64,000 bases of DNA from an uncultured Acidimicrobiia bacterium (GCA_963772815.1 CAVYYV010000005.1:318626-382625); one strand, 5' to 3'. Numbered from the stretch's first letter, positions 4,570 through 50,231 are shown. Numbers and translations: made by a program. The notes: generated by a model from the letters alone, not told the origin.

Positions 4570-6558
4570 CTAACCGGCTGCCACGGCCGGGCCCGGCTCC
4601 GGTCCGCCGCTGAACTGAGACTGGTAGAGCTCGGCGTAGGCCCCACCGGCCGTGAGGAGCCCGTCGTGAGTGCCTTGCTCGACGATCTGGCCGTCATCCA
4701 TCACCAGGATCAGGTCGGCGTCGCGGATGGTGGAGAGTCGGTGGGCGATGACGAAACTGGTGCGCTCACTGCGCAGGGCGGTCATCGCATGCTGCAACAG
4801 TGCCTCGGTCCGCGTGTCCACCGAGCTGGTGGCCTCGTCCAGGATCAGCAAAGCAGGGTTGGCCAGGAAAGCCCGAGCGATGGTGATGAGCTGTTTCTCG
4901 CCCGTGCTGACGTTGTCACCCTCGTCGTCGATCACGGTGTCGTAACCCTCGGGAAGGCTGTGCACGAACCGATCGACGAACGTGGCTCGGGCGGCCTCCA
5001 GGATCTCCTCGTCGGTGGCGTCGGGCCGACCGTAGGCGATGTTGTCACGAATGGATCCCTTGAAGAGCCAGGTGTCTTGGAGAACCATCCCCACCCGGGA
5101 CCGAAGATCGCTTCGCTTCACCCGGGAGATGTCGACCCCATCCAGCGTGATCTGCCCCCCGTCGAGGTCGTAGAAGCGCATGATCAGGTTGACCAGGGTG
5201 GTCTTGCCTGCGCCGGTGTGGCCCACGATGGCCACCATCTGGCCCGGCTCCACCGTCAGCGACACATCCTCGATCAAGGATTGCTCCAGGTCGTAGCTGA
5301 ACGAGACGTCCTCGAACGCAACCCTCCCCGCGCCACCATCGACCAGCGACCCGGCTTCCTCGTCGGACGGCTCCTCCTCGGCATCGAGCAGCTCGAACAC
5401 ACGCTCAGCTGAAGCCACGCCCGACTGGAGCAGGTTGAGCATCGAGGCCACCTGCGTAACCGGCTGGGAGAACTGGCGCGAGTACTGGATAAATGCCTGG
5501 ACATCGCCCAGGCTCATGGTGCCACTCGCCACCCTCAACCCTCCGATCACTGCTATCAGGACGTAGTTGAGATTCCCAATGAACATCATGATGGGCATGA
5601 TCAGCCCGGACAGGAACTGGGCCTTGAAGCTGGCCTGGTACAACTCCTCGTTGTCGACCTCGAAGGACTCCTGAACCTCGCGGTGGCGGCCGAACACCCT
5701 GACCAGCGCGTGACCGGTATAGGTCTCCTCGATCTTCGAGTTGAGAGTCCCGGTGCGCCGCCACTGGGTAATGAACTCGCTCTGGGAGCGGCGCATCACG
5801 AGGCCCGCTACGAATATCGTCACCGGGATGGTGATGAGGGCGATCAGGGCCAGGGTGGGTGAGATCCAGAACATCATCGCCACCACGAACAGCACGGTCA
5901 GCACCGACGACAGCATCTGGCTCATCGTCTGCTGGAGGCTCTGTGAGACGTTGTCGATGTCGTTGGTGACCCGGCTCAGCAGCTCGCCCCGCGGCTGGCG
6001 GTCGAAATAGCGCAGCGGCAGGCGGTTGAGCTTGTCCTCCACCTGGGCCCGCATGTCCAGGATCGTGGCCTGGACGACGTCATTGAGCACGTAGCCCTGG
6101 AGGTATCGCAGCAGCGAGGAGCCCAGGTACAGGGCGAGCACGATCAGCAACACGCGGCCCACGGCCCCGAAGTCGATGCCCCGGCCGGGCACCAGGTCGA
6201 TGCCCCTCAGCAGGTCGGCGATCTGGCTCTGGCCCCGGGCGATGGCGGCCTGAATGACCTGGTCCTTGGTCATTCCGGCCGGGAGGTTCTTGCCGATTGC
6301 CCCGGCGAAGATCAGATCGGTCGCCCGCCCCAGCACCTTGGGGCCGATGGCGGTGAGGGCCACACCGACGACGCCGGCCACCAGCACCACCGTCACTCTG
6401 ATTCGCTGTGGGCGCAAGTATCCCAGCAGCCGCCGCCCAGAAGTTCGGAAGTCGAGCGCCTTCTGGCCCACCATGCCTCCGCCGAAGGGGCCGTGCCGGC
6501 CCGGGCCGCCCTGGCCCTGGATTCGCTCCGTGGTCTTCATGGTGCGGGGAGCGGTCAT
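4570..6558 (-). CDS. ABC transporter, fused permease/ATP-binding exporter half-transporter
   Basis: ORF 4570..7065 is a read-through. Real start is the internal ATG (M170, MTAPRTMKTTERIQ...) at ~6558, overlapping the upstream gene's stop as ATGA. Six-TM exporter domain followed by Walker A GHTGAGKTT, signature LSGGQRQR-type region and Walker B ILDEATS. Confidence 0.8.
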   Translation of the reverse strand: MTAPRTMKTTERIQGQGGPGRHGPFGGGMVGQKALDFRTSGRRLLGYLRPQRIRVTVVLVAGVVGVALTAIGPKVLGRATDLIFAGAIGKNLPAGMTKDQVIQAAIARGQSQIADLLRGIDLVPGRGIDFGAVGRVLLIVLALYLGSSLLRYLQGYVLNDVVQATILDMRAQVEDKLNRLPLRYFDRQPRGELLSRVTNDIDNVSQSLQQTMSQMLSSVLTVLFVVAMMFWISPTLALIALITIPVTIFVAGLVMRRSQSEFITQWRRTGTLNSKIEETYTGHALVRVFGRHREVQESFEVDNEELYQASFKAQFLSGLIMPIMMFIGNLNYVLIAVIGGLRVASGTMSLGDVQAFIQYSRQFSQPVTQVASMLNLLQSGVASAERVFELLDAEEEPSDEEAGSLVDGGAGRVAFEDVSFSYDLEQSLIEDVSLTVEPGQMVAIVGHTGAGKTTLVNLIMRFYDLDGGQITLDGVDISRVKRSDLRSRVGMVLQDTWLFKGSIRDNIAYGRPDATDEEILEAARATFVDRFVHSLPEGYDTVIDDEGDNVSTGEKQLITIARAFLANPALLILDEATSSVDTRTEALLQHAMTALRSERTSFVIAHRLSTIRDADLILVMDDGQIVEQGTHDGLLTAGGAYAELYQSQFSGGPEPGPAVAAG

Positions 6559-8286
6559 GACGCCGCCACCCTGAGCTGGGACTCGACGATCTCGACGTAG
6601 GTGGGGCAGGTATCGAGCAGCTCGTGGTGAGTGCCCATTCCCACCACCAACCCGTCCTCCAGAACCACGATCCGGTCGGCATCCATGATGGTGGATACCC
6701 GCTGGGCCACCACGACCACGGTCGACTGAGCCGTCACCGGACGCAGGGCCCGCCGCAGTCGGGCATCGGTGGCCACGTCCAGGGCGGAGAACGAGTCGTC
6801 GAACAGGTACAGCTCGGGCCGGCGGATCAGGGCCCGGGCTATCGCCACCCGCTGGCGCTGGCCACCCGACAGCGTGGTCCCTTCCTGGGACACGGGGGCG
6901 TTGAGGCCCTCGGGCATGGCCTCCACGAAGTAGCGGGCCTGAGCGATCTCCAGCGCCTCCCACATCTCTTCTTCGGTGGCGTCGGGCTTGCCGTACGCGA
7001 GGTTGGAGGCGATGGTGCCCGAGAAGAGGAATGCCTTTTGAGGAACCAGTCCGATCTTGGCCCACAGCGCCTCGGGGTCGTACTCCCTCACGTCCACCCC
7101 GTCGACCAGCACGGCTCCTCCGGTGACATCGAACAAGCGCGGGATCAGGCTGACCAGCGTGGTCTTTCCGGCCCCGGTCGAGCCGATGATGGCGGTGGTC
7201 TCACCCGGGTCGGCGACAAAGCTGATGTCGCGTAGCACCGGGTAGCTGGCCCCCGGATACTTGAACTCCACCTGGCGCAGCTCCAACTCGACCGCGGGCT
7301 GCAGTCGTGGTGATGCCGGCGGTGGGAGGGACTACCGAAGACTCCGTGTCGAGCACCTCCCCGATGCGGTCGGCCGAGACCGAAGCGCGGGGAACCAGCA
7401 TGAACATGAAGGTGGACATCATCACTGCCATCAGGATCTGGATCAGATAGGACAAGTAGGCAACGACGGATCCGATCTGCATGGCCCCGGCCTCCACCCT
7501 GATCCCGCCGAACCACAAAACGGCGACGCTGGACAGGTTGAGGACCAGGAACACCGTTGGAAAGATCGCCGCCATCCAGCGGCCCACGGTGATGGCGACA
7601 TCGGTCAGCTCGCGATTGGCCAGACCGAACCGATCGGTCTCGAATGGCTCTCGGACGAAGGCCCGGATCACCCTGATCCCGGCGATCTGCTCGCGCAACA
7701 CCTGGTTGACCCGGTCTATGCGCCCCTGCATGAGGCGGAAAGCCGGCACCATGCGCGAGACGATCAGCCCTATGGCTCCTGCCAGCAGCGGGACCGCCAC
7801 TGCCACCAACCACGACAGCCCCACGTCCTCGCGCAGCGCCATGATCACGCCCCCAACCATCATCACGGGTGCCGGGATCAGCATGGTGAAGGTCATCAGG
7901 ACCAGCATCTGGACCTGCTGGGGATCGTTGGTGTTGCGGGTGATGAGCGACGGGGTTCCGAAGTGAGCCACCTCCCGGCCGGAGAAGTCCCCCACCGTCC
8001 GGAAGACGTCGAGCCGCAGGTCACGACCGAATGCCATGGCCGTGCGGGCCCCGAAGTAGACGGCAGTGATGGTGCAGGCCACCTGTAGAAGCGAGAAGGC
8101 CAGCATCCAGGCACCCACCCGGATGATGTAGTGGGTGTCGCCTGTGACGACACCGTTGTCGATGATGTCGGCATTGAGAGTGGGGAGATACAGGGCGGCC
8201 AGGGTGCCAATCAGCTGCAGCCCCACGATCAGCGAGATGACTCTCCGATAGGGTCGGAGATAACGCTTGAGGATCCGGACCAGCAT
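6555..8286 (-). pseudogene. ABC transporter permease/ATP-binding exporter, disrupted by a frameshift between the TMD (7201..8379 frame) and NBD (6555..7286 frame)
   Basis: The TMD ORF ends ...RIGEVLDTESSVVPP and then goes out of frame. The NBD ORF (ELRQVEFKYPGASYPVLRDISF..GSTGAGKTT...LSGGQRQR...LFDDSFSALD) is in another frame and opens only after a stop at ~7332. A 1-bp change in the CCCTCCC run at ~7322-7331 would fuse them as ...SSVVPPPPASPRLQPAVELELRQVEFKYPG. Start ATG ~8286 overlaps the tetR stop as ATGA. Confidence 0.7.
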
Positions 8287-8915
8287 CAGGCCCCACCCAC
8301 CCGAGTGGATTCGGCCACGCCAAACAGGAATATGTCGACCATCTCGGCGATCCCGAGATGCTGTTTGAGATCCGTCCACGAGATGCCCCGGGCAGAGACC
8401 AATCCGGCGAACACGGCCGCCGCCGTGGCCGGGGGAAGCCGGAGCCGATCGCTGTGGAGCTCGAAGAGGGTGGTGAGGGCGGCAGTTATGGAGGTGTTGG
8501 CGGCAGCCATGCGCGCCTGACCTTCGGCCATGTGCTCGGAGGAGATTGGGAGGGAACGAATCAGCGGAGCCAGGGAAAAGAAGACCTCGAGCCTCTCCAG
8601 CAGGATGCGAGCGGCTTCTGCCAGCTGAACCTCGATTGAGGCTCCGTCATGGATTTCCGACAATGCCCTGACCACCACGCCCGGGTCCATGGCCGTGGCC
8701 AACGCCGCCCGAATCAGGGCCGTCTTGTCTTCGAACACGCTGAAGATGGTTCCCTCGGCCACACCCGCGGCCTCGGCCATCTCCCGTGTGGTGACGGCCG
8801 ACCCGCGTCCGGCGAGCAGCGGGATCACCGCTTCGACGATGGCGCGGCGGCGCTCCTCGGGAGGAAGTGGATCTGCTCGGCTCACGGCGTGCACTCTAAC
8901 TGAGTGAGTACTCAC
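8286..8915 (-). CDS. TetR/AcrR family transcriptional regulator
   Basis: 209 aa. N-terminal HTH region (RRRAIVEAVIPLLAGRGSAVTTREMAEAAGVAEGTIFSVFEDKTAL) typical of TetR; stop overlaps the downstream ABC gene start. Called GTG start lies inside a palindrome; alternative GTGs at ~8894 and ~8885. Confidence 0.8.
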   Translation of the reverse strand: MSTHSVRVHAVSRADPLPPEERRRAIVEAVIPLLAGRGSAVTTREMAEAAGVAEGTIFSVFEDKTALIRAALATAMDPGVVVRALSEIHDGASIEVQLAEAARILLERLEVFFSLAPLIRSLPISSEHMAEGQARMAAANTSITAALTTLFELHSDRLRLPPATAAAVFAGLVSARGISWTDLKQHLGIAEMVDIFLFGVAESTRVGGA

Positions 8916-8917
8916 TC
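8902..8917. promoter_or_regulatory. Perfect 16-bp palindrome GAGTGAGTACTCACTC at the tetR start; candidate TetR operator
   Basis: Read directly. It overlaps the annotated tetR start codon region and is upstream of the tetR-ABC-ABC operon. Confidence 0.4.
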
Positions 8918-9006
8918 ACAAGTCCATTGGTCGAACCGGGATTCGGTCCTCTACCAATTGAATCATCTTTCGAGTGTTACGAACCTGTCTGTGCCCCCGC
9001 AGGTCG

Positions 9007-10830
9007 TCAGGACATCGCCACGGTGCCCCGTCTCCACGACTCGTACAGATGCCCGTATACACCGCCCTCCGTCAGGAGCTCCTCATGGGTGCCGTCCTGG
9101 ACCAGTCGGCCGTGGTCGAAGACGAGGACCCGGTCCGCCTTCTCGGCGGTGGACATGCGATGGGCGATGGTGACCACGGTCCTCCCGCTGGCCAGCTCGT
9201 CCATGGCCCGGGCGATCCGGACCTCGGTGGCCGGGTCCACGGCCGAGGTCGCCTCATCCAGAACCAGCAGATCCGGGTCGGCAATGGCGGCCCGCACCAG
9301 AGTGACCAGTTGCCTCTCTCCCACCGAGAGGGCGCTGCCCCGCTCGCCGACGGGGGTTCCCAGCCCGGCAGCCAGCTCATCCAGCCAACCCTCCAGGGCC
9401 AGTGCCTCGAAGGCGCCTCGCACGTGCTCGTCAGAGGCGTCCGGACGGCCCATCCTCACGTTGTCAGCGATCGTGCCGGAGAACAGCATCCCTTCCTGGG
9501 GCACCATCACCACCCGGTCCCGCAAGGAGTCGAAACGAACCGTTGACACGTCGACGTCCCCCACTCTGACCACTCCTTCGGTCGGATCCATCAGCCGGGT
9601 GAGTAGCTTGGCGAAGGTGGTCTTTCCGGACCCGGTCTCACCCACCACAGCCACCTTCTGGCGGGGCTCGATGCGGACATCGAGCCCCGTGAGCGCAGCA
9701 GAGCCGGTGGCGGCCTCGGCCGACTCGCCCGGCTTGGGATAGCGAAACGTGACTCCGGCGAAGGTCACTCCGAGCGGCCAGTCGGGTAGGGCCACTCCTT
9801 TCGCTCCCGGATCGGCCACGTCGGGGGGAATTCCCAGGATGTCGAGAACCCGCCGCCATCCGGCCACCGCGGTCTGAGCCTCGTTCACCGCCTCGCCCAG
9901 GACCTGGACCGGCTGGATGAACAACTGGACCAGGAACAAGAAGGCCACCACCCGGCCCACCGTGGTCAGGCCGTGAACCGCCAGCAGAGTCCCCACCACC
10001 ACCACCCAGGCCAGGACAAAGCCAGACAGGATCTCACCGGCCCCGGAGAACGCAGCCGAGAGGCTCCCGGCCTCTACTCCGGCTCGGCGATGCTCCTCGA
10101 TCGCCAGCCCCAGCCGCCGCTGGATCCTGCCCTCGATTCCGTAAGCGCGAATCACCGGGGCCCCGACGACGACCTCGGCCAGCACTGCCAGCATCCGGCC
10201 CACCTTCTCACGCACGATCAGGTAAGCCCTGTCGAGCCTGCTCTGAAACCAGCGCATGGTCAGCACGATGATCGGTAGGGACGCCACCACCACCCCGGCC
10301 AGCGGAGGCGAGTAGAACACCATCACGACCAGCGCCAGGAGGGCCTGGCCTCCGTTGGTGATCAGCATCAACCCGGCCCACTGCATGAAGCGGCTGATCT
10401 CGTCGACATCGGAGGTGACCCGGGAAACGAGGGACCCCCTCTGCTCCGAGGCCTGATGGAGCATGGAGAGGTCGTGGATGTGCCGAAAAGCACGGATACG
10501 CAGGCCTGAGAGGGCCGTCTCCGACACCTTGGCCAAACGCACGTTCATCCACCCAGTCGCCCCGGCCGTCACGATCACCGCCCCCAGCGCCAGGAGGCAC
10601 ATCCTGATGACGAACTTCATGTCGACCTGTCCCGCACTCAGACCGCCGTCCAGTATCTGTTGGATGGCGATGGGGACCACGACCCGGCCCGCTGTCGCCA
10701 CCAGAGCCAGAAGCAACGTTCCCGGCAGCCCACGACGCAACTCCGGGGAGAGGCGGAGACCCCGCTTGATCGTCTTCCAGGCACCGGAACGGGCCCGGCC
10801 GGAGTTCCTCGGGGCCGCCACAGCCGTCAC
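9007..10830 (-). CDS. ABC transporter, fused permease/ATP-binding exporter
   Basis: 607 aa. TM domain followed by GETGSGKTT Walker A, LSVGERQL signature-like and LVLDEATSAVD Walker B. Start overlaps the upstream ABC gene by 4 bp. Confidence 0.82.
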   Translation of the reverse strand: MTAVAAPRNSGRARSGAWKTIKRGLRLSPELRRGLPGTLLLALVATAGRVVVPIAIQQILDGGLSAGQVDMKFVIRMCLLALGAVIVTAGATGWMNVRLAKVSETALSGLRIRAFRHIHDLSMLHQASEQRGSLVSRVTSDVDEISRFMQWAGLMLITNGGQALLALVVMVFYSPPLAGVVVASLPIIVLTMRWFQSRLDRAYLIVREKVGRMLAVLAEVVVGAPVIRAYGIEGRIQRRLGLAIEEHRRAGVEAGSLSAAFSGAGEILSGFVLAWVVVVGTLLAVHGLTTVGRVVAFLFLVQLFIQPVQVLGEAVNEAQTAVAGWRRVLDILGIPPDVADPGAKGVALPDWPLGVTFAGVTFRYPKPGESAEAATGSAALTGLDVRIEPRQKVAVVGETGSGKTTFAKLLTRLMDPTEGVVRVGDVDVSTVRFDSLRDRVVMVPQEGMLFSGTIADNVRMGRPDASDEHVRGAFEALALEGWLDELAAGLGTPVGERGSALSVGERQLVTLVRAAIADPDLLVLDEATSAVDPATEVRIARAMDELASGRTVVTIAHRMSTAEKADRVLVFDHGRLVQDGTHEELLTEGGVYGHLYESWRRGTVAMS

Positions 10831-16189: not shown

Positions 16190-16702
16190 ATGAAGAGACG
16201 CACGATGTTGACGGTGATGCTGGCGGCGATCCTCATCGCCGGGTCGATTTCGGCGGTTGGCGCCGACGAGTCGAAGCTGCTGGACACCAATGCCATGGTC
16301 GGCGTACCCCGTCCCTACACGGGTGCGACGAACGCTATCCGCGGTGTGCCCGGCGGCGGTCTCCCTTGGGTGATCGATTTCGGCAAGGCGAAGGTCAGCC
16401 CCGAGGGCAGCGTGGACGTGCAGGTCAAGGGATTGGTGTTCGATCCGGATGATGAGGCTGTGATCGGACTGGGCATTGGCGGCACCAACACCGTTCCCAA
16501 CTTCAAAGCGATCGTCAGCTGTCTCAGCAAGGACGCAGATGGGAATCCCGTCACAGTCAATGTCTCGACCGGCCTCTTCCCGGCCGACACCAACGGTAAC
16601 GCTCACATCGATGACGAGGTTTCCCTCCCGGAGCCCTGCATTGCCCCGGTCGTCTTCGTGACCAGCCCCGGTGGCGCCTGGTTCGCTTCGACCGGTTCAT
16701 AA
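16190..16702 (+). CDS. hypothetical secreted protein
   Basis: 170 aa with a signal peptide (MKRRTMLTVMLAAILIAGSISAVGA). No domain recognised. Confidence 0.55.
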   Translation: MKRRTMLTVMLAAILIAGSISAVGADESKLLDTNAMVGVPRPYTGATNAIRGVPGGGLPWVIDFGKAKVSPEGSVDVQVKGLVFDPDDEAVIGLGIGGTNTVPNFKAIVSCLSKDADGNPVTVNVSTGLFPADTNGNAHIDDEVSLPEPCIAPVVFVTSPGGAWFASTGS

Positions 16703-16731
16703 CCCGCCGGCGAGGTGACGGGACGACCCGG

Positions 16732-17316
16732 TCAGCGCACGGCCCGGGCTGCTCCCACCACGTCGAGAAGCAGGTCAGGGTCTACGGGCGGTGATGGGAC
16801 GTTGGCCACGGCAAGCCTTCCGTGGGCGATTCCGTCGGTCATCTCCACCTCGGCTCCCAGCTCGTCGAGAATGGACCGCATGGGTCCGTTGTCGGAGAGG
16901 ACCTCGAACTCGAGGGTCCCAAACCCGACATTGGCCGCCACCACTGCCAGCGCTAGCACCAGGAACCGGCCCAAACCACGGCCCTGGTAGTCATCCAGAA
17001 CCGTGACTGCCACTTCCGCCGCGGTCGGGTCGGTGGAGGTCTTGGCGTATCGACCCACGGCCGCCGCGTCTCCCTCGACCAGCAGGCCCCAGGCGAACCG
17101 ATCGAACATGTCGAGATCGGTGAGCTGGGTCAACTCGTGCTCGGAGAGCGAGGTGACGGGGGAGAAGAAGCGGTAATAACGCGACCGCTCCGACAGGCGG
17201 GTGAAGGCCTCGCTGAGCAGGGCGCGATGATTGGGACCGAGCGGGATCAACTCAACGGGCGCACCGTTGAGGTTGAAGGAAGCTGTCTTGGGGGGGCGCC
17301 AGATCTCAACCGACAT
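16732..17316 (-). CDS. GNAT family N-acetyltransferase
   Basis: ORF 16732..17583 is a read-through. Conserved part from M90 (MSVEIWRPP...) has an acetyl-CoA binding region (VTVLDDYQGRGLGRFLVLALAVVAANVGF) typical of GNAT. Confidence 0.7.
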   Translation of the reverse strand: MSVEIWRPPKTASFNLNGAPVELIPLGPNHRALLSEAFTRLSERSRYYRFFSPVTSLSEHELTQLTDLDMFDRFAWGLLVEGDAAAVGRYAKTSTDPTAAEVAVTVLDDYQGRGLGRFLVLALAVVAANVGFGTLEFEVLSDNGPMRSILDELGAEVEMTDGIAHGRLAVANVPSPPVDPDLLLDVVGAARAVR

Positions 17317-17567
17317 TTCGTCTCTCTGCTTGCAACTGCAAGCATACCGCACGCGGGTTTCAAAGCCAGGCTCAGTAGAGACGCCGGTTACGAAAGAGAT
17401 CCCCTCCCTGCCCCTGTCTCCTCCCCCGAAGGGGGAGGTGGCGAACGCAGTGAGCCGGAGGGGATCCGGAACACCCGGAGACACGCAGGAAGCTCCCCCG
17501 TCGGGGGGAAGAGAACGAGGGGTTCCGACTTCGCGGGACTGGGTGGGCTCGCTTAGCCTGCTGGCGC

Positions 17568-18756
17568 GTGTCACGGCGTCCACCTCTCGTCTTCATCTTC
17601 ACGATCACGCTGACCGGGATCCTCAACAACACCCTGGTCACTCCGGCCATACCCGACATCCTGGCCGAGTTCGGCGTCCCAGATCAGCGAGCCGGAGTGC
17701 TGGTTGCGGCAGGATCGGTGGCGGGAATCGTCGTCGCGCCGTTGATCGGAATCTTGGCGGACCGGTATGGCCGCCGCCTGGTGCTGACGACTTGCCTGGG
17801 CCTGTTCGGCGCCTTCGGGGGCGTGGCCGCCATCTCACCCTCCTTCACGATCCTGCTGTGGTCGACGCGTCCTCCAGGGGGTGGGATCGGCGGGTTTGAT
17901 CAACCTGGCGGTGGTCCTGATCGGCGATCACTGGGACGGAGCCATGCGCACCCGGCTGGTGGGGCGCAACTCAGCCATCCTCACAGTGGGCCTGGCCTCG
18001 CTGCCCCTTCTGTCGGGAACCGTGACCGAGGCTGCAGGCTGGAGGGTGACCTTCGCCATCTACACGATCGCCCTTCTGATGGCGGTCTTAACCCTGGTGG
18101 TGCTGGACGAGTCCCGACCTGAGAACCCTCCCCCCATTCGCCGGCAGCTGAGCGGAGCCGGCGAGGTCGTGCGCCAGCCTGAGGTGGTGGTCACCTTCGT
18201 GATCGGCTTCGTGGTGTTCATCATGATCTTCGGGTTGCTGCTGACCGTGTTCCCGCTCCATCTCGAGCAACGATTCGGGATGTCGGCCGCTACCCGCGGC
18301 CTGATGATCTCAGTGCCGGCCGTCACCTCGTCGCTGGCGGCGTTCAACCTGGGACGGATCCGGGCACATCTCTCGCCCCGCACCATCGTCATCGCCGGGT
18401 CGACGATCTTCATAGCCGCGTTCCTGATCCTGGGTGCCTCGACGGTGGTGCTGTTCACGGTCCTGGGAGCTCTCCTGTATGGATGCTCGGAGGGGATGTT
18501 CATCCCCACCATCCAGGATCTGGCCATGGCCACCTCGCCCAACGAGCACCGGGGAGCGGTCGTAGCGGTGTGGGTGGGTGCCGCCCGACTCGGACAGACC
18601 GTAGGTCCGCTTCTGGCCGGACTGGCCCTGGCAGCCTGGGCCCCGGGGACCACACTGATGATCGGGTCCGCCCTGGCGGGCCTGATACTCCTCATCGGGC
18701 TCTTCGGCCCTCTCTCTCGGTCCACAACCCCGGCCGCACCGAGGCAGCGGCACTAG
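17568..18756 (+). pseudogene. MFS transporter disrupted by a frameshift (ORFs 17568..18122 and 17881..18756)
   Basis: First ORF ends ...ADRYGRRLVLTTCLGLFGAFGGVAAISPSFTILLWSTRPPGG and then goes out of frame. The second frame reads RRVLQGVGSAGLINLAVVLIGDHWDG..., the expected continuation after MFS motif A. A 1-bp change near ~17856-17860 restores ...SFTILLGRRVLQGVGSAGL.... Confidence 0.7.
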
Positions 18757-18887
18757 CCTCTCGTTCAGCATGGCCCGCATTTCCACATCGACTCGAGCCT
18801 TCGGCTCGGGGAGGACGCGAGAATCACGACGCCTCCGGGTTCTACGGGCGATTCGCCCCTCCTCGCATCTCCGACGACGCCGAGGTG

Positions 18888-19706
18888 CGCTCCCCGGCCA
18901 CCACCGACCGGATCTTCTGTGGCGAGGCGGCCACGATGACTCAGACGCAGGTGGCGGACAAGTCGGTGGCCCTGGTGGTCACATCGCCGCCTTATTTCAC
19001 CGGCAAGGAGTACGAGCAGGATCTCGGCTCGGGCCACGTGCCGGCCAGCTACGTGGAGTACCTCGAGTCTCTGTACGAGACCCTGGCCGTGTGCGTCGAC
19101 AAGCTCGAACCGGGAGGCCGCATGGCGATCAACGTGGCCAATCTGGGCCGCAAGCCGTACCGGTCCCTGTCCGCCGACTTGATCGCGATCCTCCAGGATG
19201 ATCTGGGCCTACTCATGCGGGGTGAGATCGTGTGGCAAAAGGCCAAAGGAGCGGGCGGCTCGTGCGCCTGGGGATCGTTTCGCTCACCCGCCAACCCGGT
19301 CCTGCGGGACCTGACCGAGCGGGTTCTGATCGCCTCGAAGGGCCGATTCGATCGAGCTCTGAGCCGTCGGCGGCGCCAGGAACTGGGCCTGCCCCATGTG
19401 GCCACGATCGAGACCGAAGACTTCCTTCAGGCCACCCTCGACGTGTGGGAGATACCGGCTGAATCGGCCACCCGGATCGGCCACCCTGCTCCCTTCCCGG
19501 TCGACCTGCCCCGGCGCCTCATCGAGCTCTATACCTACCAAGGAGACCTGGTCCTCGACCCCTACATGGGATCGGGTTCGACTGCCGTCGCCGTCGTTGC
19601 CACGGAACGCCACTACGTCGGCTTCGACACCAACCCCGACTACGTGGCACTGGCGGAGGAGCGCCTCTCCCATTTTGGCGCGACATCCAGGCCATCGACG
19701 CCCTGA
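18888..19706 (+). CDS. DNA methyltransferase (beta-class amino-MTase, SPPY motif; N4-cytosine or N6-adenine)
   Basis: ORF 18483..19706. Conserved part ...TDRIFCGEAATMTQTQVADKSVALVVTSPPY (motif IV SPPY) and C-terminal DPYMGSGSTAVAA (motif I FxGxG-like), i.e. the circular-permuted beta-class order. Start assigned to the GTG at ~18888 upstream of RIFCGEAA; ATG at 18936 is an alternative. Confidence 0.7.
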   Translation, partial: RSPATTDRIFCGEAATMTQTQVADKSVALVVTSPPYFTGKEYEQDLGSGHVPASYVEYLESLYETLAVCVDKLEPGGRMAINVANLGRKPYRSLSADLIAILQDDLGLLMRGEIVWQKAKGAGGSCAWGSFRSPANPVLRDLTERVLIASKGRFDRALSRRRRQELGLPHVATIETEDFLQATLDVWEIPAESATRIGHPAPFPVDLPRRLIELYTYQGDLVLDPYMGSGSTAVAVVATERHYVGFDTNPDYVALAEERLSHFGATSRPSTP

Positions 19707-26242: not shown

Positions 26243-27800
26243 ATGAACTGGTGGGCCAACGCCGTCGGCTACGAGGTGTACATCCGGTCCTTCGCCGACG
26301 GAAACGGTGACGGAATCGGCGATTTCGCCGGCATGACCGAGCGGTTGGGCCATCTCGCCTGGCTGGGTGTGGACGTGATCTGGGTCACACCCTTCTACCC
26401 GTCCCCGCAAGCCGACTTCGGCTACGACGTGATGGACTACACCGACGTCGACCCCCAATTCGGCGACCTGGAGACGTTCGACCAGGTGGTGGGGCACGCC
26501 AAGGAGCTCGGCTTGCGAGTAATGGTCGACATCGTTCCCAACCACACCTCGGATCGACACCCCTGGTTCATCCAGGCCCTGGCCGATCCCAACAGCCCAT
26601 ACCGCGACTACTACATCTTCCGCCCCCCGGGTCCCGATCGGGGGGCCTCCCAATAACTGGATCTCCAACTTCGGCGGCCCCGCCTGGACCCTCGATCCGG
26701 CCAGTGGGGAGTACTACTGCCATCTGTTCTTGCCCCAACAGCCCGACCTCAACTGGGCCAGCGAGGCGGTGCGGGCCGAGTTCGACAGCATCCTCACCTT
26801 CTGGATGGACAGGGGCGTCGACGGCTTCCGGATCGACGTGGCGCATGCCCTGATGAAACATCCCAGCTTCGCCGACAACCCTCAGATCGAGCCGTTGTCC
26901 CCGAACCCCACTCCCCGGCAGGCCTACAAGGCGTTCGACCATCTCTATGACCAGGACCAGCCCACCAATCTCGACATCTATCGCCGCTGGAAGAACCTCC
27001 CCGGCGGTTCGGAGATCTGCCTGGTGGGTGAGGTCTACCTGACCAATGCCGAGCGCAGCGCGGCATACATGAACGTGGGAGGGCTCGATTGGGCCCTGTT
27101 CTTCGCGCTCAACCGCCGGCCCTGGGATCCCGCCGCCTTCGCCGACGAGATCCGCCACTGGGTCGAAGCTGCCCCAACCGGATTCGCCTGGTCGATCGCC
27201 AGCCACGACGAGCACCGGCCCGCCACGCGCTTCGGCGGAGGCGAGGAGGGCCGTGCCCGCGCCCTGGCCCTGTGGTCCGCGTTGTCCATGCTGCCCGGCA
27301 TGCCCTTCCTGTATCAGGGGGAGGAGCTCGGCCTGGAGAACGGCCAAGTAGATCCGGCCGATGTCCAGGATCCGGTCGGCATGGAGGCGTACCAGGAGGG
27401 ACGCGATCCGTGCCGGACCCCGATGCCGTGGGAGTCGGGTCCCGGTCAGGGCTTCACGACAGCCGAGCAGGCATGGTTGCGTTGTGCTGACCGACCACCT
27501 CAGGAGACAGTGGTCGCGCAGCGCCATGATCCCGGCTCCACGCTGCACCGCTACCGGGAGCTACTGGAGGTGCGCCGAAATCTCCGGGTGGGCAGTCGGG
27601 GCACCCCAACCTGGCTCGAGGCCGGCCCCGGGGTGATCGCGTTCGAACGCCAGGACCTGGCGGCCGTGGCCAACCTGACCGACTCTCCGGTCGAATCCAA
27701 CCTCGACCCGACCTACACGCTCATCTTCGACACCGGCGTCCAAGAAGCCGCCGACGAGACGGCGGTCCCTCCACGCACTACGCGGATCTACACCCGTTGA
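26243..27800 (+). pseudogene. GH13 alpha-glucosidase / oligo-1,6-glucosidase-like, disrupted by a frameshift (ORFs 26108..26656 and 26730..27800)
   Basis: N-terminal ORF has MNWWANAVGYEVYIRSFADGNGDGIGDF...GVDVIWVTPFYPSPQADFGYDV...DIVPNHTSDRHPWF...YRDYYIFRPPGPDRGASQ-stop. The next frame reads PPNNWISNFGGPAWTLDPASGEYYCHLFLPQQPDLNW...GVDGFRIDVAHAL.... A 1-bp change in the G6 run at ~26636-26645 joins them. Start moved to ATG at 26243 (MNWW...). Confidence 0.75.
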
Positions 27801-39282: not shown

Positions 39283-39289
39283 GCTCGGA

Positions 39290-42283: not shown

Positions 42284-42339
42284 TACAGGAGTGTGGCACG
42301 GGGCGAAGATCCGAGCGGGCATAATGGCGGCCAAATGGA

Positions 42340-42604
42340 CAGCTACTCGGGACCGGCTCGCATCCTCGACTCCAACGGGATACTGCTGACCGTGGGCAGC
42401 GTCGAACTCGAATCCAAGCCCGAGACCCGCTCCTGGGGCGGCCTCCTGAGGGTGATCGCCCACACGGGTGTGGCGGGCAAGGCGCTGAGCATCAAGCTCG
42501 ACCTCGGGCAGGGGAGAGTCGGTGATGCCGCCCTGGATCCCCTGTCACAGGAAGACGGGGTGGCCTTCTCCGAGGTAGCCGGGATCGGCCCCCAGCCATT
42601 CTGA
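42340..42604 (+). CDS. small hypothetical protein (88 aa)
   Basis: Part of track ORF 41963..42604. From ATG ~42340 (MDSYSGPARILDSNGILLTVGSVELESK...) GC3 is ~84% on this strand versus ~68% for the opposite-strand frame. Convergent with kynureninase. No homology recognised. Confidence 0.3.
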
Positions 42605-42627
42605 GCTTCGTCGCCCTCTGCTCTCCT

Positions 42628-43926: not shown

Positions 43927-44197
43927 AGTCGCAGCCGGGGAGCCGCAGCGAGCACCTCGACACAGCCAGGCGCGTCGAGGGCCGGAGACACCGCGCCATC
44001 ATTTGGGCGACGCACCACCAGCGGTCGGTGCCGGGCCGAACCATCCCGGCGATGGATCACTGAGGCTTTGCTCGGCTTCCGTGGGAGCGCTCCCGGGTGA
44101 GGATCGAATCAATTCCCGCTTCAACCGACCCGGCGCCAGGCAGCTGGTTAGTGTGCGATTGCCCCCCCGGCCACAGAGACGAGTAGGAGGAAGCTCA

Positions 44198-45385
44198 ATG
44201 GACCGGCGCGAATTTCTCAAGACGGCAGGATTTGGAGCTGCCGGAATCGCAGGTGCGGCTTTGCTGGCCGCCTGCCAGACCGAAGGCGGGACGGTGGCGA
44301 CTACCGGTGGTGCGACGGGCGGGACGGGCGCTCCTGCCACCACCGGCAACCCCGATCTCGACACCGCCCTCCAGGCAACAGATCTGCCAGAGGTCAGCTG
44401 GAACCTGGCCACGAGCTGGCCCACCAACCTGGACACCATCTTCGGCGGCGCCACCACCTTCGCCGATCGGGTGAGTGCCATGACCGGCGGCCGGTTCACC
44501 ATCGACGCCCGGGCAGGCGGGGAACTGGTGCCCCCTCTGGAGGTCCTCCAGTCCGTCCAACAGGGTGCCGTCGACGCCGGGCACACCGCCTCGTACTACT
44601 ACCTGGGCCTCGGCCAATGGCTGGCTTTCGGGACTGCGTTGCCGTTCGGCCTCACCGCCCGCCAGCAAAATGCGTGGCTGTATTACGGAGGCGGCCTGGA
44701 CATGCTCCAGCAGCTCTATGCCGAGAGGTTCAACGTCATCCAGTTCCCGGCCGGGAACACGGGCGTACAGATGGGCGGGTGGTTCAACAAGGAGATCAAG
44801 AGCCTGGCCGACATCCAGGGTCTCCGCTTCCGTATCCCAGGTCTGGGAGGGTCGGTGATGGACAAGCTCGGCGCAGCCGTGCAGGTGATCGCCGGCGGTG
44901 AGATATTCCAGTCGCTTCAGACCGGTGCCATCGACGCCGCCGAGTGGGTTGGCCCCTACGACGACACCAAGCTCGAGTTCCAGACCGTGGCCAAGTACTA
45001 CTACTACCCCGGATGGTGGGAGCCGGGTCCGACCCTGGAAGTCCAGATCGGGCTCGACAAGTGGAATGCCCTCCCCGAGGAGTACCAGGAAGTGGTCAAG
45101 TCGGCCGCCGCCCACGCCAATGTCGACATGATGGCGTCTTACGACGCCAAGAACCCGGTTGCCTTCAACGACCTCGTGAACGGATCGGACGTGCAGGTCC
45201 TGCCCTTCCCCGAGGACGTGATGCAGGCGGCCGAGCAAGCAGCCTTCGAGATCTACGACCAGAACGCTGCTGACGATGCCGACTTCAAGTCGATCTTCGA
45301 CTCCTGGAAGCCTTTCCGGGATTCAGCCAACGCCTGGTTCAAGATCGCCGAGGCGGGCTTCGTGAATTACGAGCCTCAGGTGTAA
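44198..45385 (+). CDS. dctP: TRAP transporter substrate-binding protein (DctP family) with Tat-type signal
   Basis: Track ORF 43772..45385. Real start ATG ~44198 (MDRREFLKTAGFGAAGIAGAALLAAC) after a GGAGGA RBS. Twin-Arg signal and DctP-like fold. Confidence 0.75.
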   Translation: MDRREFLKTAGFGAAGIAGAALLAACQTEGGTVATTGGATGGTGAPATTGNPDLDTALQATDLPEVSWNLATSWPTNLDTIFGGATTFADRVSAMTGGRFTIDARAGGELVPPLEVLQSVQQGAVDAGHTASYYYLGLGQWLAFGTALPFGLTARQQNAWLYYGGGLDMLQQLYAERFNVIQFPAGNTGVQMGGWFNKEIKSLADIQGLRFRIPGLGGSVMDKLGAAVQVIAGGEIFQSLQTGAIDAAEWVGPYDDTKLEFQTVAKYYYYPGWWEPGPTLEVQIGLDKWNALPEEYQEVVKSAAAHANVDMMASYDAKNPVAFNDLVNGSDVQVLPFPEDVMQAAEQAAFEIYDQNAADDADFKSIFDSWKPFRDSANAWFKIAEAGFVNYEPQV

Positions 45386-45462
45386 GGACAACATCTACCA
45401 AAGCCAGAGGGGCCCCCGGTTCGCCGGGGGCCCGTTTTGGCGTCTCGCCAGCGTTCGCTGAT

Positions 45463-46821
45463 CTAACCGGCGCCCAGCCCCCCGCCCAATCCGGCCAGAT
45501 GCACCATCCAGGTCACGCTGGCCGGGATCAGGGCCACCAGGATCAGCCCCACACCCTGCAAGGCCATGAAGGGGAAGGCTCCGAGGTGTATGTCCTTGGT
45601 CTTGATCTCGGGTGGAGCCACCGACTGGAGGTAGAAGAGCGAGAACCCGACCGGGGGCGAAATGAAGGCGATGTTGAGGTTGATCGCCATCATCACCGTG
45701 AACCAGACCAGGTCCACCCCCAGCGCCTGGGCGGCGGGCACGAACAGGGGCATGACGATGAAGGAGATCTCGAGGAACTCGAGGTTGATGCCGAGGAGGA
45801 AGACGATCACGTTGGCGGCGACGATGAATCCCCACTTACCTCCGGGAAGGTTGAGCAGCCAACCCGTGATCAGGTCCTGGCCGCCGAGACGATCGAAGAG
45901 GAGGGCGAAGAAAGTGGAGCAAAACAGGATCTGGAGCACCAGGGCAGTGATCTGGGTGGTGGCGACCGCGGCTTCCCTGATCATCTTCCAGGAGAAGTTG
46001 CGGTAGCCGATCGCAAGGAGGACCGCACCCAGGGCACCGACCGATCCCGCCTCGGAGGCGGTGGCCAGACCGAAGAAGATCGAGCCGAGGACCGCGAAGA
46101 TCAGCGCCAGTGATGGCACGATGGAGAGGAAGGCCTCCTTGGCCAGCGCCGCTCCCGCCAGGGTGCGCTCTTCCTTGGGGATGGGTGGGGCAGTACCGGG
46201 CCGCAGGTAGGCGATGATGACCGCATAGGCGGCGTAGAGGATCGCCAGCATGATCCCGGGAATGAGGGCACCGGCGAAGAGCTGACCCACCGAGACGGGC
46301 AAGAAGGTGGCCAGCACGATCAGCACCAGACTGGGAGGAATGAGCTGGGCCAGGGTGCCTGAGGCGATGATTACGCCGGTGGCCAACTTGTGGTCGTAGT
46401 TGTAGCGCACCATCACCGGCAAGGAGAGGATGCCCATGACGATGACAGTCGCTGCCACGACACCGGTCGCGGCGGCGAGCAGGGTGCCGACGAACACCAC
46501 CGCGATGGCCATGCCGCCCTTGATCGGGCCCATCAACATGCCAATCGAGGTGAGCAATCGCTCGGCCAGGCCCGATTTCTCGAATACCGCCCCCATGAAG
46601 ACGAAGAAGGGGATGGCGAGGAAAGTGAAGTTGGCCATCGAGCTGGCAAACCACTTGTTGAACAGGCCATTCAAGATCGCCGGGTCGAGAGCGCCTGTGA
46701 AATAGCCGAGGACGAAGAACACGAAGGCAGTTCCGGCGAACGAGAAGGCGACCGGGTAGCCCAGCATGATCACCACCATGAAGACGAGGAACATGATGAT
46801 CGCCAGCCACTCAGCACTCAC
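45463..46821 (-). CDS. dctM: TRAP transporter large permease (DctM)
   Basis: 452 aa, ~12 TM helices, typical DctM composition. Confidence 0.85.
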
Positions 46822-46840
46822 GCTCGGCTCCCTCTCCCGA

Positions 46841-47451
46841 TCATTCCACCCGCACCGGGGCCTTGGACACGTCGTAGCGCTCCTTGCCCCGCAGGACCCG
46901 GACGAGCTTGATCATCTCGGCCAGCGTCTGGAGGGAGAGGAGGGCGAAGGCCACCAGGATCACGCTCTTGATCGGATAGCACGCGGCAGCCCGCTTGGAT
47001 CGGGCGAGCCCTCCTTCACCTGCCAGGAGAAGAGGATCGGGCTGATGGAGACCCAGATGCCGATGACGCAGAAGGGAATCAGCCCGATCAGATGGCCCAC
47101 GAAATCGATCAAGGCCTTGGTCTTCTCGCTCCGATTGGCGAACCAGAAGTCCACCCGCACGTTGACCTGGTTCTTGAGAATGTAGGCGAAGGCAAACAGG
47201 AAGATCAGCGAGTAGAGGTACCACTGGCCTTCGATGAGAGCATTACTGGTGAGCTGCTGATGCACCGAGGCGCCCACCCGGCGTAGAACCACGTTGACAA
47301 AGCCCATCAAGATGGTGGGGACGACCAGCCACACCGAGACCTTGCCGAAGAACTCTGATATGGCTTCGATGCCGTTGATGAACCAACCGTGATCGAGCGG
47401 AGCTCCCGCCTTGTCTCTCCGCCGTCCGTCCTCGGGAATGTCGGTGGCCAT
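46841..47451 (-). pseudogene. dctQ: TRAP transporter small permease (DctQ), disrupted by a frameshift near its 3' end
   Basis: ORF 46960..47451 ends ...ILFSWQVKEGSPDPSGLPRAIRSRA-stop. The conserved DctQ C-terminus ...[37 protein letters not shown] is in another frame (tail of ORF 46841..47224). A 1-bp change at ~46975-46985 joins them. Confidence 0.65.
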
Positions 47452-47500
47452 CGCTCGGGGACCCTACCGCCCCGGATTGCCCCGAGGCGGCCAAACCGCC

Positions 47501-48067
47501 CTACTCGTTGACCGCCGCCCCTCCCCATCGTCTCACCAGGTCGACGGCGGCCGGGGACAGGTCAATGTCGCTTACGTGGATTATCCGCTCACCGCGAACC
47601 ACCTGCACCACGGTCTCGGCGAACTGTTCGGAGGGAGTATCGAACCACACGTCTCCCTGATGCCAATCCTGATCGGGCGGAAAGCCCTGGATAGCCATGA
47701 ACCTGGCCCCGATCTCATCCACGACCGGGCAGGAGGCTTCGAGATGATGGCCGAACTCGTGCATGAGCGATTCGGGGAAACGGCGGGGCGAGGTGGGTAC
47801 CAGGACACGGATGACGTGATCGGAGAAGCTGTAGGAGGCGTCGCCGTCGGGAAGCTCGCTCACCGCCACCAGGTCGACGTCACCCAGGCAGTCGCGCTGG
47901 TTGGGGAAGGCGGCCACGAAGTCGGCCCAGGAATCCTCGATGATCGTCATCGCCTGCGGAGGAAACTTCTGGCTGAGACGCAGCACCGGTCCTCCCCCAC
48001 TATTGGCCCACAGAACCCCCCCAATCACCCCCACCACCACTACCGCCAAGACCACCGACCTGCGCAC
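47501..48067 (-). CDS. putative secreted zinc metallopeptidase (HExxH)
   Basis: 188 aa. Signal/anchor MRRSVVLAVVVVGVIGGVLWA and the motif HEFGHH. Confidence 0.5.
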   Translation of the reverse strand: MRRSVVLAVVVVGVIGGVLWANSGGGPVLRLSQKFPPQAMTIIEDSWADFVAAFPNQRDCLGDVDLVAVSELPDGDASYSFSDHVIRVLVPTSPRRFPESLMHEFGHHLEASCPVVDEIGARFMAIQGFPPDQDWHQGDVWFDTPSEQFAETVVQVVRGERIIHVSDIDLSPAAVDLVRRWGGAAVNE

Positions 48068-48113
48068 CTATGTGTTTTTATCAGCAAAACGGGACCCAGG
48101 AGGGTCCGTTTTG
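48064..48113. repeat. Palindromic terminator-like repeat element, copy A (GTTTTTATCAGCAAAACGGGACCCAGGAGGGTCCGTTTTGCAGGGGAGAA)
   Basis: Perfect AAAACGGGACCC / GGGTCCCGTTTT inverted repeat with conserved flanks TTTATCAGC and CAGGGGAGAA. Same element at ~54.0, 59.7 and 60.3 kb. Confidence 0.75.
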
Positions 48114-48125
48114 CAGGGGAGAATC

Positions 48126-49568
48126 TCAGACGGGGCGATTCTCACGAGACTTGTGGATCTGATGGATCTGTCGGGCCTGGTGAGACCCGTCCGACGCTGG
48201 GCCGGTTGCGGGCGGGGCCGGAAGGGCCACCTCCACCACCAGCCCCCCCTCCTGAGCGTCTTGCAGGGTGACGGTACCGTCGTGGGCATCGGCGATCGCC
48301 TTGACGATCGAAAGCCCGAGGCCGCTACCGGCCGATGAGTTGTCGCCCCGCCAGAACCTATCCAGCGCCCGGCGCTTCTCCTCGTCCGAGAGGCCAGGGC
48401 CGGAGTCTGCAACAGACAGGATCAGGTTTTCCTCACGCCGGTCCAGCGAAACCGCGATGTTGCCCCCGGCGGGGGTGGCCGCGATGGCGTTGTCGATGAG
48501 GTTGTCGAGGATCTGGTCGATCGCGCCCGGTATGAGGAGTACCGGTGCGATCGGCTCGTGCTGAACGGATCGCAATGTCACCGAGGTCTCAGCCGCGACA
48601 GCGGACCAGATCTCCACTCGGTCCTCGACCACCTCCTCCACCGGCACGGCCTCCCGATCGGGCTGCAGGTCGGTCCGCGCCAGCCGCAGAAGCTGACCGA
48701 CGAGGGCGCCGAGCCGTTCGGTCTCTTCGATGGCTGCGTTGATCTCAGCCTCCTGTCCGGGCCGGACATCGGCCTCGGCCAGGTTCTCGAGGCGAAGGCG
48801 CAGCGCGGTCAGTGGTGTCCGAAGCTGGTGAGAGGCGTCGGCGACGAAGGCGCGCTGAGCTCGGAGCATCTCATCCAGGCGACGCGCCATCCCGTTCAGG
48901 GTCTCGGCCAGCTCTACCACCTCTGGCGGGGCGTCCCTCGGGGCCGGCTTGGCGCCGAGGTTTCCCGACGCAAACGAGTGCGCCGCATCCTCCAACTCGC
49001 GAAGCGGCCGCGAAACCGAGCGAGCCAGCGTGGATCCCACGGCCGCTACCGCCACCAGGATGACCCCGGCCACGGCCGCCAGGCCAAACCAGAATTGGTG
49101 AATCCGACTCTCCACCTGGGTGATGGGGAGGGTCAGCCGGAGTGCACCGTGGACCACGCCTCCCGAGGCCACCGGCACCGCCACGTAGAGGAAGTCGATC
49201 CCCAGCGTGTCGGAATGACGGGTGCCCTGGGACCTCACGCCCGTGAGGGCTGTGGCGATCTCGGGACGGGTGGAGAAGTCGCGGTCCACCGGTGCGTCCG
49301 TGTCGAGCAGCGCTATGCCGTTGGTGTCCACCAGGACGACCCTGGCTCCGGTGCGAGCCCGATACTCCTCGGCGGCGGTGGGGCGTAGAGGCGCTCCCGA
49401 GTCCAGAACGTCCTCGTAGGTAGTGGCCAGCACCGCTGCGTCCGATGCAACGGCATTTGTGAACCGGTCCCGTTCCCGGGTAGCGAAGAAGAAGGCGAGA
49501 GGTATCTCCAGCACCAGGATGATGAACAGTGCCAGGGTGAGATAACTGATCAGGATGCGGCGGTTCAC
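48126..49568 (-). CDS. sensor histidine kinase (HAMP-HisKA-HATPase)
   Basis: 480 aa. N-terminal TM, periplasmic segment, second TM. H-box ADASHQLRTPLTAL. N, G1, G2 boxes (DNLIDNAIAAT, ADSGPGL, GSGLGLSIV). Confidence 0.88.
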   Translation of the reverse strand: MNRRILISYLTLALFIILVLEIPLAFFFATRERDRFTNAVASDAAVLATTYEDVLDSGAPLRPTAAEEYRARTGARVVLVDTNGIALLDTDAPVDRDFSTRPEIATALTGVRSQGTRHSDTLGIDFLYVAVPVASGGVVHGALRLTLPITQVESRIHQFWFGLAAVAGVILVAVAAVGSTLARSVSRPLRELEDAAHSFASGNLGAKPAPRDAPPEVVELAETLNGMARRLDEMLRAQRAFVADASHQLRTPLTALRLRLENLAEADVRPGQEAEINAAIEETERLGALVGQLLRLARTDLQPDREAVPVEEVVEDRVEIWSAVAAETSVTLRSVQHEPIAPVLLIPGAIDQILDNLIDNAIAATPAGGNIAVSLDRREENLILSVADSGPGLSDEEKRRALDRFWRGDNSSAGSGLGLSIVKAIADAHDGTVTLQDAQEGGLVVEVALPAPPATGPASDGSHQARQIHQIHKSRENRPV

Positions 49569-50231
49569 TGCGCGGCGGGCTCCGCCGCCACCCTGAAGCC
49601 GACACCGCGGATCGTTTCGATGACTTCAGCGCCCAGCTTGCGCCGCAACGAGGCCACGTGAACGTCGAGGGTCTTAGTCGATCCCCACCAGTGCTCGTCC
49701 CAGACGGATTCGAGGATTCGCTCCCTGGAAAAGACCGCTCCCGGGTCGCTCGCCAGGAAGACGAGCAAGTCGTATTCCTTGGGAGTGAGCGAAACGGGCT
49801 CGCCATCCACGGTCACCTCCCGCGTGCGTCGGTCGACCGTCACGCGCCCCAGGACCTGGGTCGTGGTCGTGACGGGGGCTGCCGACGCGCGGCGCAGCAC
49901 CGCCCTTATCCGGGCGACAAGCTCGCGATACCCGAATGGCTTCACCACATAGTCATCCGCCCCGATCTCGAGCAGTGTGACACGGTCGATCTCGTCGCCC
50001 GCGCGCCGTGACCACGATGATCGGCACCTCGGACCTCTCCCGCAGCCGCCGGGCCACGGTTTGGCCGTCGAGATCGGGAAGACCTAGGTCCAGGAGTACC
50101 AGATCACCCGGGTCCGCCTCGAGGGCAGCCGCACCCGTTTCGGCCAGAGCAACCGTGAAACCCTCCCGCTCCAGGCCACGACACAGAGGGTCCGAGATCG
50201 TGTGATCGTCCTCGACCACCAGCAATCGCAT
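49565..50231 (-). pseudogene. OmpR-family response regulator split by a frameshift between receiver (49953..50231) and winged-helix (49565..49948) domains
   Basis: Receiver MRLLVVEDDHTISDPLCRGLEREGFTVALAETG...DLVLLDLGLPDLDG...VPIIVVTARG, then out of frame. The other frame reads ...DEIDRVTLLEIGADDYVVKPFGYRELVARIRAVLRR...EYDLLVFLASDPGAVFSRERILESVWD...TLDVHVASLRRKLG. One extra G in the GCGCGGGCG run (~50011-50021) explains it. Confidence 0.7.

Follow-up and report, generated by a model that had tools for sequence, protein, structure and literature searches.

Why should conserved genes for transport and regulation be interrupted by frameshifts, one after another, within a single short stretch of a bacterial genome? 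The question is raised by a 64,000-nucleotide stretch from an uncultured Acidimicrobiia bacterium (GCA_963772815.1, CAVYYV010000005.1:318626-382625), hereafter termed the window. A preliminary description of this sequence had named five split genes, those for an ABC exporter, an MFS transporter, a GH13 glucosidase, the TRAP transporter small subunit DctQ and an OmpR-type response regulator, and had attributed the breaks to single-base indels, mostly in short G/C homopolymers, that would reflect either sequencing and assembly error in a long-read metagenome-assembled genome (MAG) or ongoing pseudogenization. Here, we report that the window contains six such lesions, all private to this one assembly, and that, judged from sequence comparison, they are very probably artefacts of one cause or another. 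Five of the six lie at most 3 nt from the tetranucleotide CGCG, and a mechanism of Nanopore basecalling error linked to this motif, and to its methylation, appears to us the reasonably probable source.

The window (66% G+C, zero N) is part of a source contig of 647,908 bp from an uncultured Acidimicrobiia, available in NCBI and in the European Nucleotide Archive (ENA), and was compared with two further sequences. The first, hereafter the public contig, is ENA metagenome contig ERZ25039549:contig_24653 (468,606 bp), overlapping pieces of which cover the entire window and which encodes an identical DnaK; alignment over the 64 kb gives 36 substitutions and 16 indel events between the two (99.89% identity). 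The second, hereafter the outgroup, is contig_56556 (pieces L006, L123 and L124) of MAG MFD05684.bin.1.262, another uncultured Acidimicrobiia and the nearest species representative in GTDB, which is syntenic with the window at ~85% nucleotide identity. Both contigs belong to the same Microflora Danica (MFD) long-read assembly, ERZ25039549. A scan of JGI metagenomes with the histidine kinase returned only matches of at most 43% identity and hence no usable outgroup, and a search of a plasmid collection returned only distant dnaK matches, which pointed to Actinomycetota. The MFD long-read (MFD-LR) assemblies were built from Nanopore reads only, with Flye and one round of Medaka (PMC12313526). 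Most probably, the 647,908-bp contig stems from the same project (native-DNA Nanopore reads, metaFlye, one Medaka round, without short-read polishing), and the reads behind this particular contig are presumably of Nanopore origin.

Six interrupted genes and the bases that interrupt them

Frame changes were located by three-frame translation and frame plots of G+C at third codon positions (GC3), fragments and repaired proteins were assigned by Pfam matches above the gathering threshold, and lesions were placed to the base by alignment with the public contig and the sister species. By these means the five named genes were confirmed to be split, and a sixth, encoding an N6_N4 DNA methyltransferase, was added (Table 1). 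Compared with the public contig and the outgroup alike, the window has extra bases at six sites (7290, 17864, 18813, 26639, 46980-81 and 49998), and tblastn with all outgroup open reading frames (ORFs) detected window-specific frame breaks at those six places and none elsewhere in the 59 kb covered. Exact deletion of the extra bases yields ORFs of 576, 395, 311, 518, 202 and 221 aa, respectively, with zero internal stops. These repaired lengths agree with the gene calls of the public contig or, in the case of the response regulator, of the sister species, and more than 100 homologues of the ABC exporter measure 575-577 aa, a range that includes the public contig's copy. Each of the six genes has one clean lesion. 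Additionally, the five truncated proteins listed for the 647,908-bp contig (entries P0242, P0250, P0262, P0264 and P0268, of 361, 286, 137, 356 and 163 aa) are exactly encoded in the window, out-of-frame tails included.

Placement to the base revises several details of the preliminary description. A single-base indel accounts for four of the five genes that it named, but dctQ, although correctly located at ~46975-46985, has a two-base insertion outside any homopolymer. The CCCTCCC run at 7322-7331, taken as the junction in the ABC exporter, marks only the opening of the ORF in the frame of the nucleotide-binding domain (NBD), and the extra base is at 7290. For the MFS transporter, the proposed junction at 17856-17860 was close, but the actual extra base, at 17864, is outside any homopolymer. 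The G6 run at ~26636-26645 is indeed the place of the GH13 lesion, which is, however, an extra C just 5' of a run of unchanged length. Finally, the response regulator, described with a GGG run at ~50011-50021, does have a run-length change (GG to GGG), but at 49998, 11-20 nt from those coordinates.

Table 1. Interrupted genes of the window, their lesions, and breaks found in the public contig (window coordinates; inserted bases in brackets; TMD, transmembrane domain)
Feature	Position	Strand	Detail
ABC exporter half-transporter (ABC_membrane + ABC_tran)	6555-8286	-	576 aa repaired
ABC exporter, TMD fragment (ABC_membrane)	7201-8286	-	361 aa
ABC exporter, NBD ORF	6555-7286/7331	-	ABC_tran on 6555-7286
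ABC exporter lesion, +1	7290	-	+ strand TC[G]AC; coding strand CGCGG-T-[C]-GAG
MFS transporter (MFS_1)	17568-18756	+	395 aa repaired; source-contig call is a 286-aa C-terminal fragment, 17896-18756
MFS lesion, +1	17864	+	public TCA, outgroup TCG, window TCGA; opposite strand CGCG-T-C
N6_N4 DNA methyltransferase (PF01555)	18770-19706	+	311 aa repaired
Methyltransferase lesion, +1 at codon 15	18813	+	public AGA, outgroup CGG, window AGGA
GH13 alpha-amylase-family glucosidase	26243-27800	+	518 aa repaired
GH13, first piece	26243-26656	+	137 aa; half of Alpha-amylase domain
GH13, second piece	26730-27800	+	356 aa; half of Alpha-amylase domain
GH13 lesion, extra C between GAT and G6 run (26640-45)	26639	+	public GAT, three outgroups GAC, window GATC
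TRAP transporter small subunit DctQ	46841-47451	-	202 aa repaired; source-contig call is a 163-aa fragment, 46960-47451 (Pfam DctQ)
dctQ lesion, two-base insertion	46980-46981	-	coding strand CCGCG-[TG]-CTAT, directly 3' of CGCG
OmpR-type response regulator (Response_reg + Trans_reg_C)	49565-50231	-	221 aa repaired; 92% identical to intact outgroup orthologue
Response-regulator lesion, +1 run-length change	49998-50000	-	+ strand CCC; coding strand GCGCGC-GG[G]-CGAC
Response regulator, break in public contig	49885-49886	-	extra G; window and outgroup agree
ClpB, intact in window	54059-56626	-	855 aa; public contig split into 351 + 514 aa by C7 vs C8 at 55607
126-aa gene (56741-57115), break in public contig	56820	-	window agrees with outgroup
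nfeD, two run contractions in public contig	58104-05 and 58148		C5 to C3 and GGG to GG, mutually compensating
PGA_cap-family gene, ORF 62163-63329	62883		G7 in window (one long ORF) vs G6 in public contig (138 + 156 aa)

Three assemblies and three disjoint sets of frameshifts

Comparison with orthologues in the nearest relative, a check that the preliminary description had proposed, was informative, in that the sister species lacks all six insertions. They are absent from the public contig as well, where all of the six genes are intact except that for the response regulator, which is broken there at another base. Conversely, several genes that are intact in the window are interrupted in the public contig. 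The window's ClpB, also present in full on the 647,908-bp contig, is one example. In nfeD, two compensating changes leave ~14 codons of the public contig out of frame within a seemingly intact gene, and here the window matches the sister species. The outgroup sides with the intact version wherever it covers a break; the PGA_cap break lies outside the outgroup loci. The outgroup has a frameshift of its own (L123, ~11975) in the orthologue of a 184-aa hypothetical at window positions 47501-48055, and for this reason that orthologue is uncalled in the sister species. In all, three contigs (the public contig and the outgroup from Nanopore reads, the window presumably so) carry three disjoint frameshift sets. 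Sequencing or assembly error of a long-read MAG, the first of the two possibilities raised at the outset, is what such a distribution favours: the insertions are private to the window, the other assembly has different frameshifts, and the sister species is without them.

The distribution also bears on whether the lesions might instead be real and recent, that is, strain-specific frameshifts that are putting transport, regulation and methylase genes out of action, perhaps at a hot spot linked to CGCG. What is probably a genuine pseudogene does lie nearby (an mscL remnant with a ~160-bp deletion, present in both assemblies), the majority of the insertions do not look like classical homopolymer errors, and the GH13 frameshift recurs when run ERR11523667 is assembled independently from k-mers. 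Methylated cytosines, moreover, are mutation hot spots, which we count on the side of this explanation. We nevertheless regard it as quite unlikely. The 99.9%-identical assembly has no lesion in common with the window and bears a disjoint set that includes ClpB; about 10 or more frame-breaking indels would have to be set against 13 non-synonymous substitutions, and the mostly synonymous changes indicate purifying selection; non-duplicative single-base insertions coincide with the outgroup allele at all of the four sites concerned, for which there is no known mutational mechanism; and there is exactly one lesion per gene, and a single site takes three states across three data sets.

Pseudogenization of transport and regulation genes is thus not upheld by lesions that are private to one assembly and number one per gene. 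Nor did the partner genes, suggested as a place to look for relaxed selection, give any sign of it: ABC662, DctP, DctM and the histidine kinase are uninterrupted, and the two assemblies have them in identical form. The window resembles decaying genomes, for example those of host-restricted bacteria, in having many conserved genes frameshifted within a short stretch, but it differs in that its lesions are not common to near-identical relatives and occur one per gene, in that neighbours and partners are intact, and in the evidence of purifying selection.

A different way of keeping the sequence as it stands would be to suppose that the genes are expressed normally through programmed ribosomal frameshifting or transcriptional slippage. 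Shifts of +1 and +2 exist, and nothing more speaks for this idea, to which we assign a negligible probability: the six genes are unrelated and have no common slippery motif, and their orthologues, in the sister species as in the strain that is 99.9% identical, are single-frame.

The lesions concentrate at CGCG

Sites at most 3 nt from CGCG make up 4.0% of positions, and yet they account for 22 of the 52 differences between window and public contig (15 of 36 substitutions and 7 of 16 indels) and for all of the window frameshifts but that at 26639. In an unbiased scan of all 3-6-mers, CCGCG ranked first, with 18 events within 2 nt against a background of 2.2% (P about 3e-15), followed by CGCG, with 19 events inside the same distance (P about 1e-13). 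Transitions constitute 11 of the 15 CGCG-linked substitutions, and three C/G transversions have the shared context CGCG[C/G]A. When the 30 differences away from CGCG were searched for a second motif, G/C runs of at least 5 were the only enriched context.

This last result, together with the change from GG to GGG at 49998, the proximity of 26639 to a G6 run, and the breaks in ClpB, PGA_cap and NfeD of the public contig, which are run-length changes, would be in keeping with ordinary long-read miscalls of homopolymer length in short G/C runs. Errors of this type are acknowledged for MFD-LR MAGs in the MFD paper, and the present breaks resemble them in being private, single-base and gene-fragmenting, most clearly so in the public contig (C7/C8 in ClpB, G6/G7 in PGA_cap). 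The window lesions, however, are of another form: five of six leave pre-existing runs of at least 2 unchanged. The inserted bases at 7290, 17864 and 46980-81 differ from both of their neighbours, the lesion at 18813 converts G to GG and so extends a run of one, and at 26639 a C has been added, the G6 run being equally long in the two assemblies. Homopolymer miscalls are therefore a most improbable general cause, and the shared mechanism first envisaged gives way to another regularity, since one lesion in six is a change to an existing run (that at 49998) and five in six are at most 3 nt from CGCG.

Read as biology, the same concentration could make CGCG, perhaps methylated, a hot spot for indels and substitutions at which, in individual strains of a soil Acidimicrobiia, the glucosidase, the methyltransferase, the response regulator and the transporters would be turned off, amounting to motif-targeted, strain-private gene inactivation, or phase variation that does without homopolymers; we hold this to be very unlikely.

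Doubled alleles and the question of mixed strains

At four sites (7290, 17864, 18813 and 26639) the inserted base is the outgroup allele at an adjoining, diverged third codon position, with the alternative transition allele in the public contig (GGT/GGC, TCA/TCG, AGA/xGG and GAT/GAC, respectively). At 7290, for instance, which is at most 3 nt from CGCG, the public contig reads GGT, the outgroup GGC and the window GGTC. All four sites read 'TC' on one strand; at 18813, the opposite strand is CGCG-T-C-C. A random non-homopolymer insertion would have this doubled form with a chance of 9%, so that four of four corresponds to P = 6e-5.

Such doubling could in principle come from a mixture of two strains distinguished by synonymous T/C or A/G single-nucleotide polymorphisms (SNPs), if the consensus step (the Flye polisher or Medaka) kept both alleles and methylation played no part. 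The composition of the four insertions, public allele plus outgroup allele at third codon positions, is what this would produce; heterogeneity is real, inasmuch as 19 of 32 coding substitutions are synonymous and k-mer contigs differ from both assemblies at single sites; and the MFD paper states that microdiversity hampers assembly. On balance we find a strain mixture unlikely. It leaves the concentration at CGCG unexplained and does not account for the three lengths at the response-regulator site. Furthermore, a k-mer (de Bruijn) assembly reproduces GATC at the GH13 site, and a SNP bubble cannot give both alleles in tandem.

Genuine strain variation is nonetheless probably part of the picture. 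The 32 coding substitutions between the assemblies comprise 19 synonymous and 13 non-synonymous changes, 19 of 32 fall at third positions, and, with the outgroup as reference, derived alleles number 20 in the public contig and 10 in the window. Part of these substitutions is probably real strain variation. That all of them might be errors was considered and ruled out, in that those away from CGCG resemble strain variation and a control pair from the sister species is comparably variable without indels. In this control, Nanopore contig_56556 was aligned with a contig of NCBI MAG GCA_049579045.1, giving 32 substitutions and 0 indels over 15.8 kb, with 3 of the 32 substitutions near CGCG. The control lacks both indels and motif bias, and ordinary strain variation therefore shows neither. 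The CGCG effect is confined to the window's lineage, as strain-specific methylation would be.

k-mer contigs from deposited runs

Further data sets were available as Logan k-mer contigs from two ENA runs, ERR11523667 (L003, L005, L126 and L128) and ERR11594398 (L129). L003 and L126 are 100% identical to the window, and L126 includes the extra C at 26639, from which it follows that the GH13 insertion is present in reads (at least two of ERR11523667) and not in the consensus alone. L128 has two mismatches to the window, both within CGCG. At the response-regulator site the three data sets differ: the public contig reads GG, the window GGG and L129 TGGG, the last again out of frame; the spurious 'TG' after CGCG(C) in L129 recurs at the window's dctQ site. 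L005 ends 3 nt short of the dctQ insertion (46977), and L128 starts 52 nt from the response-regulator insertion (50050), as expected if reads disagree there.

What these contigs can say about error depends on the platform. The Logan paper states that all sequencing platforms were assembled. MFD Illumina data are deposited in NCBI under PRJNA1071982, and ENA PRJEB58634 holds Nanopore reads and assemblies; given this division, we consider it likely that ERR11523667 and ERR11594398 are both Nanopore runs. The idea that the window had been made from the public contig by deliberate mutation was ruled out, because independent Logan contigs match the window and not the public contig at SNPs and at a 9-bp duplication.

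A model of motif-linked basecalling error

How might a motif generate such lesions? Our proposal is that basecalls at CGCG, often within CCGCG or CGCGG, are unreliable in this organism. CGCG would be methylated, and the altered current would leave the basecaller wavering within the pyrimidines (T or C) or within the purines (A or G). What is written at the ambiguous position would then vary with data set and polishing run: the correct base, the incorrect transition, the two bases in succession ('TC') or a spurious 'TG', the last two of which would add one or two bases and break the reading frame. Five of the window frameshifts would be of this CGCG kind; that in GH13, where a C is added beside a G6 run, likewise falls on a T/C-ambiguous third codon position. 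The data support this proposal in that the lesions are private, are concentrated at CGCG and take the form of T/C doubling, and in that the second assembly errs differently at like sites. We infer methylation of CGCG as the cause.

Precedents exist. Native-DNA reads from R10.4.1 flow cells have been found to contain strain-specific, motif-linked R/Y 'ambiguous positions' that arise from methylation, with assembly errors that are inconsistent between runs (PMC11610573), and strand-specific mismatches have been described in native-DNA Nanopore data (PMC11610603). As with the ambiguous positions of PMC11610573, the present errors are tied to a short strain- or species-specific motif and are mostly R/R or Y/Y confusions, only a subset of motif sites become errors, runs of one strain differ, and the assemblies are, presumably for the window too, from Flye and Medaka. 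The cases in both studies are described as substitutions, however, whereas here there are insertions of one or two bases ('TC' doubling and 'TG'), and the motif here is CGCG or CCGCG in an uncultured Acidimicrobiia. A new detail would be that an ambiguous position is sometimes recorded as two bases, so that genes are frameshifted.

Several points weigh against this proposal. Published methylation-induced errors are mainly substitutions, so that insertions of the present form go beyond that record and are our own inference, and the methylation model does not account in detail for the two-base 'TG' insertions. CGCG, with 262 sites in the window, is only moderately under-represented under a Markov expectation (observed/expected ratio 0.65; 0.36 by composition). 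This under-representation and the presence of an N6_N4 methyltransferase gene in the window are hints at CGCG methylation and not proof of it; the sister species has an orthologue of the methyltransferase, yet shows little CGCG effect. The GH13 insertion is reproduced by the independent k-mer assembly of ERR11523667 (L126), and, should that run be Illumina, the GH13 frameshift would be real. Finally, the 59% of substitutions that are synonymous point to genuine strain variation, and some of the indels could be genuine too.

The methyltransferase gene itself looks like an orphan: it lies between the MFS gene and a low-molecular-weight phosphatase gene, has no adjoining nuclease gene, and is frameshifted at a CGCG site.

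Consequences for annotation and quality control

The frameshifts, which are almost certainly errors, matter for annotation and quality control of Nanopore-only MAG catalogues and not for biology. About one gene in ten (6 of ~56) is falsely fragmented in the window, and in the sister assembly a similar number of different genes are. The five truncated proteins from the 647,908-bp contig, with their out-of-frame tails, are already in public protein collections. Because the window errors are motif-linked and not homopolymer-linked, quality checks based on homopolymers and screens of coding density would miss them, and compensating errors such as those in nfeD escape ORF-based checks. Apparent strain SNPs at CGCG (15 of 36) are suspect as well. 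The pattern predicts that CGCG or CCGCG would be methylated in this Acidimicrobiia lineage.

Other features of the region

The mscL remnant (57186-57411, + strand) lies between the 126-aa gene (- strand) and padR (57552). It retains an 'MIKELKEFI' start, has a ~160-bp internal deletion relative to the sister species (~residues 10-60), and continues with the C-terminal 68 residues in another frame. Window and public contig have the same remnant, base for base, and it is probably a genuine pseudogene, unlike the six private frameshifts.

Two length differences between the assemblies involve tandem repeats. In a gene for an NAD-dependent epimerase-like protein, the window has an in-frame 9-bp tandem duplication at 53657-53665 (CTGCTGCCC twice, LLP-LLP), giving 347 aa as against 344 aa in the public contig; the duplication is also found in L128 of run ERR11523667 and is probably real strain variation. 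Near the 5' end of the PGA_cap gene, at 62358-62371, a short tandem repeat (GACATCCCCCACCACC...) differs in length by 8 nt.

Identity to the sister species is 97% in the segment at 16273-17356, which comprises the end of a gene for a 170-aa hypothetical protein and the greater part of a gene for a GNAT acetyltransferase, as compared with ~85% in the flanking 20 kb, and a recent exchange or unusually strong conservation are possible explanations. Finally, a 164-aa ORF at 50940-51438, which overlaps the end of a gene for a 193-aa hypothetical protein, is called on L128 and L130 (Logan/JGI) and in the sister species (165 aa) but is uncalled on the public contig despite equal DNA length, an inconsistency of gene calling and not a frameshift.

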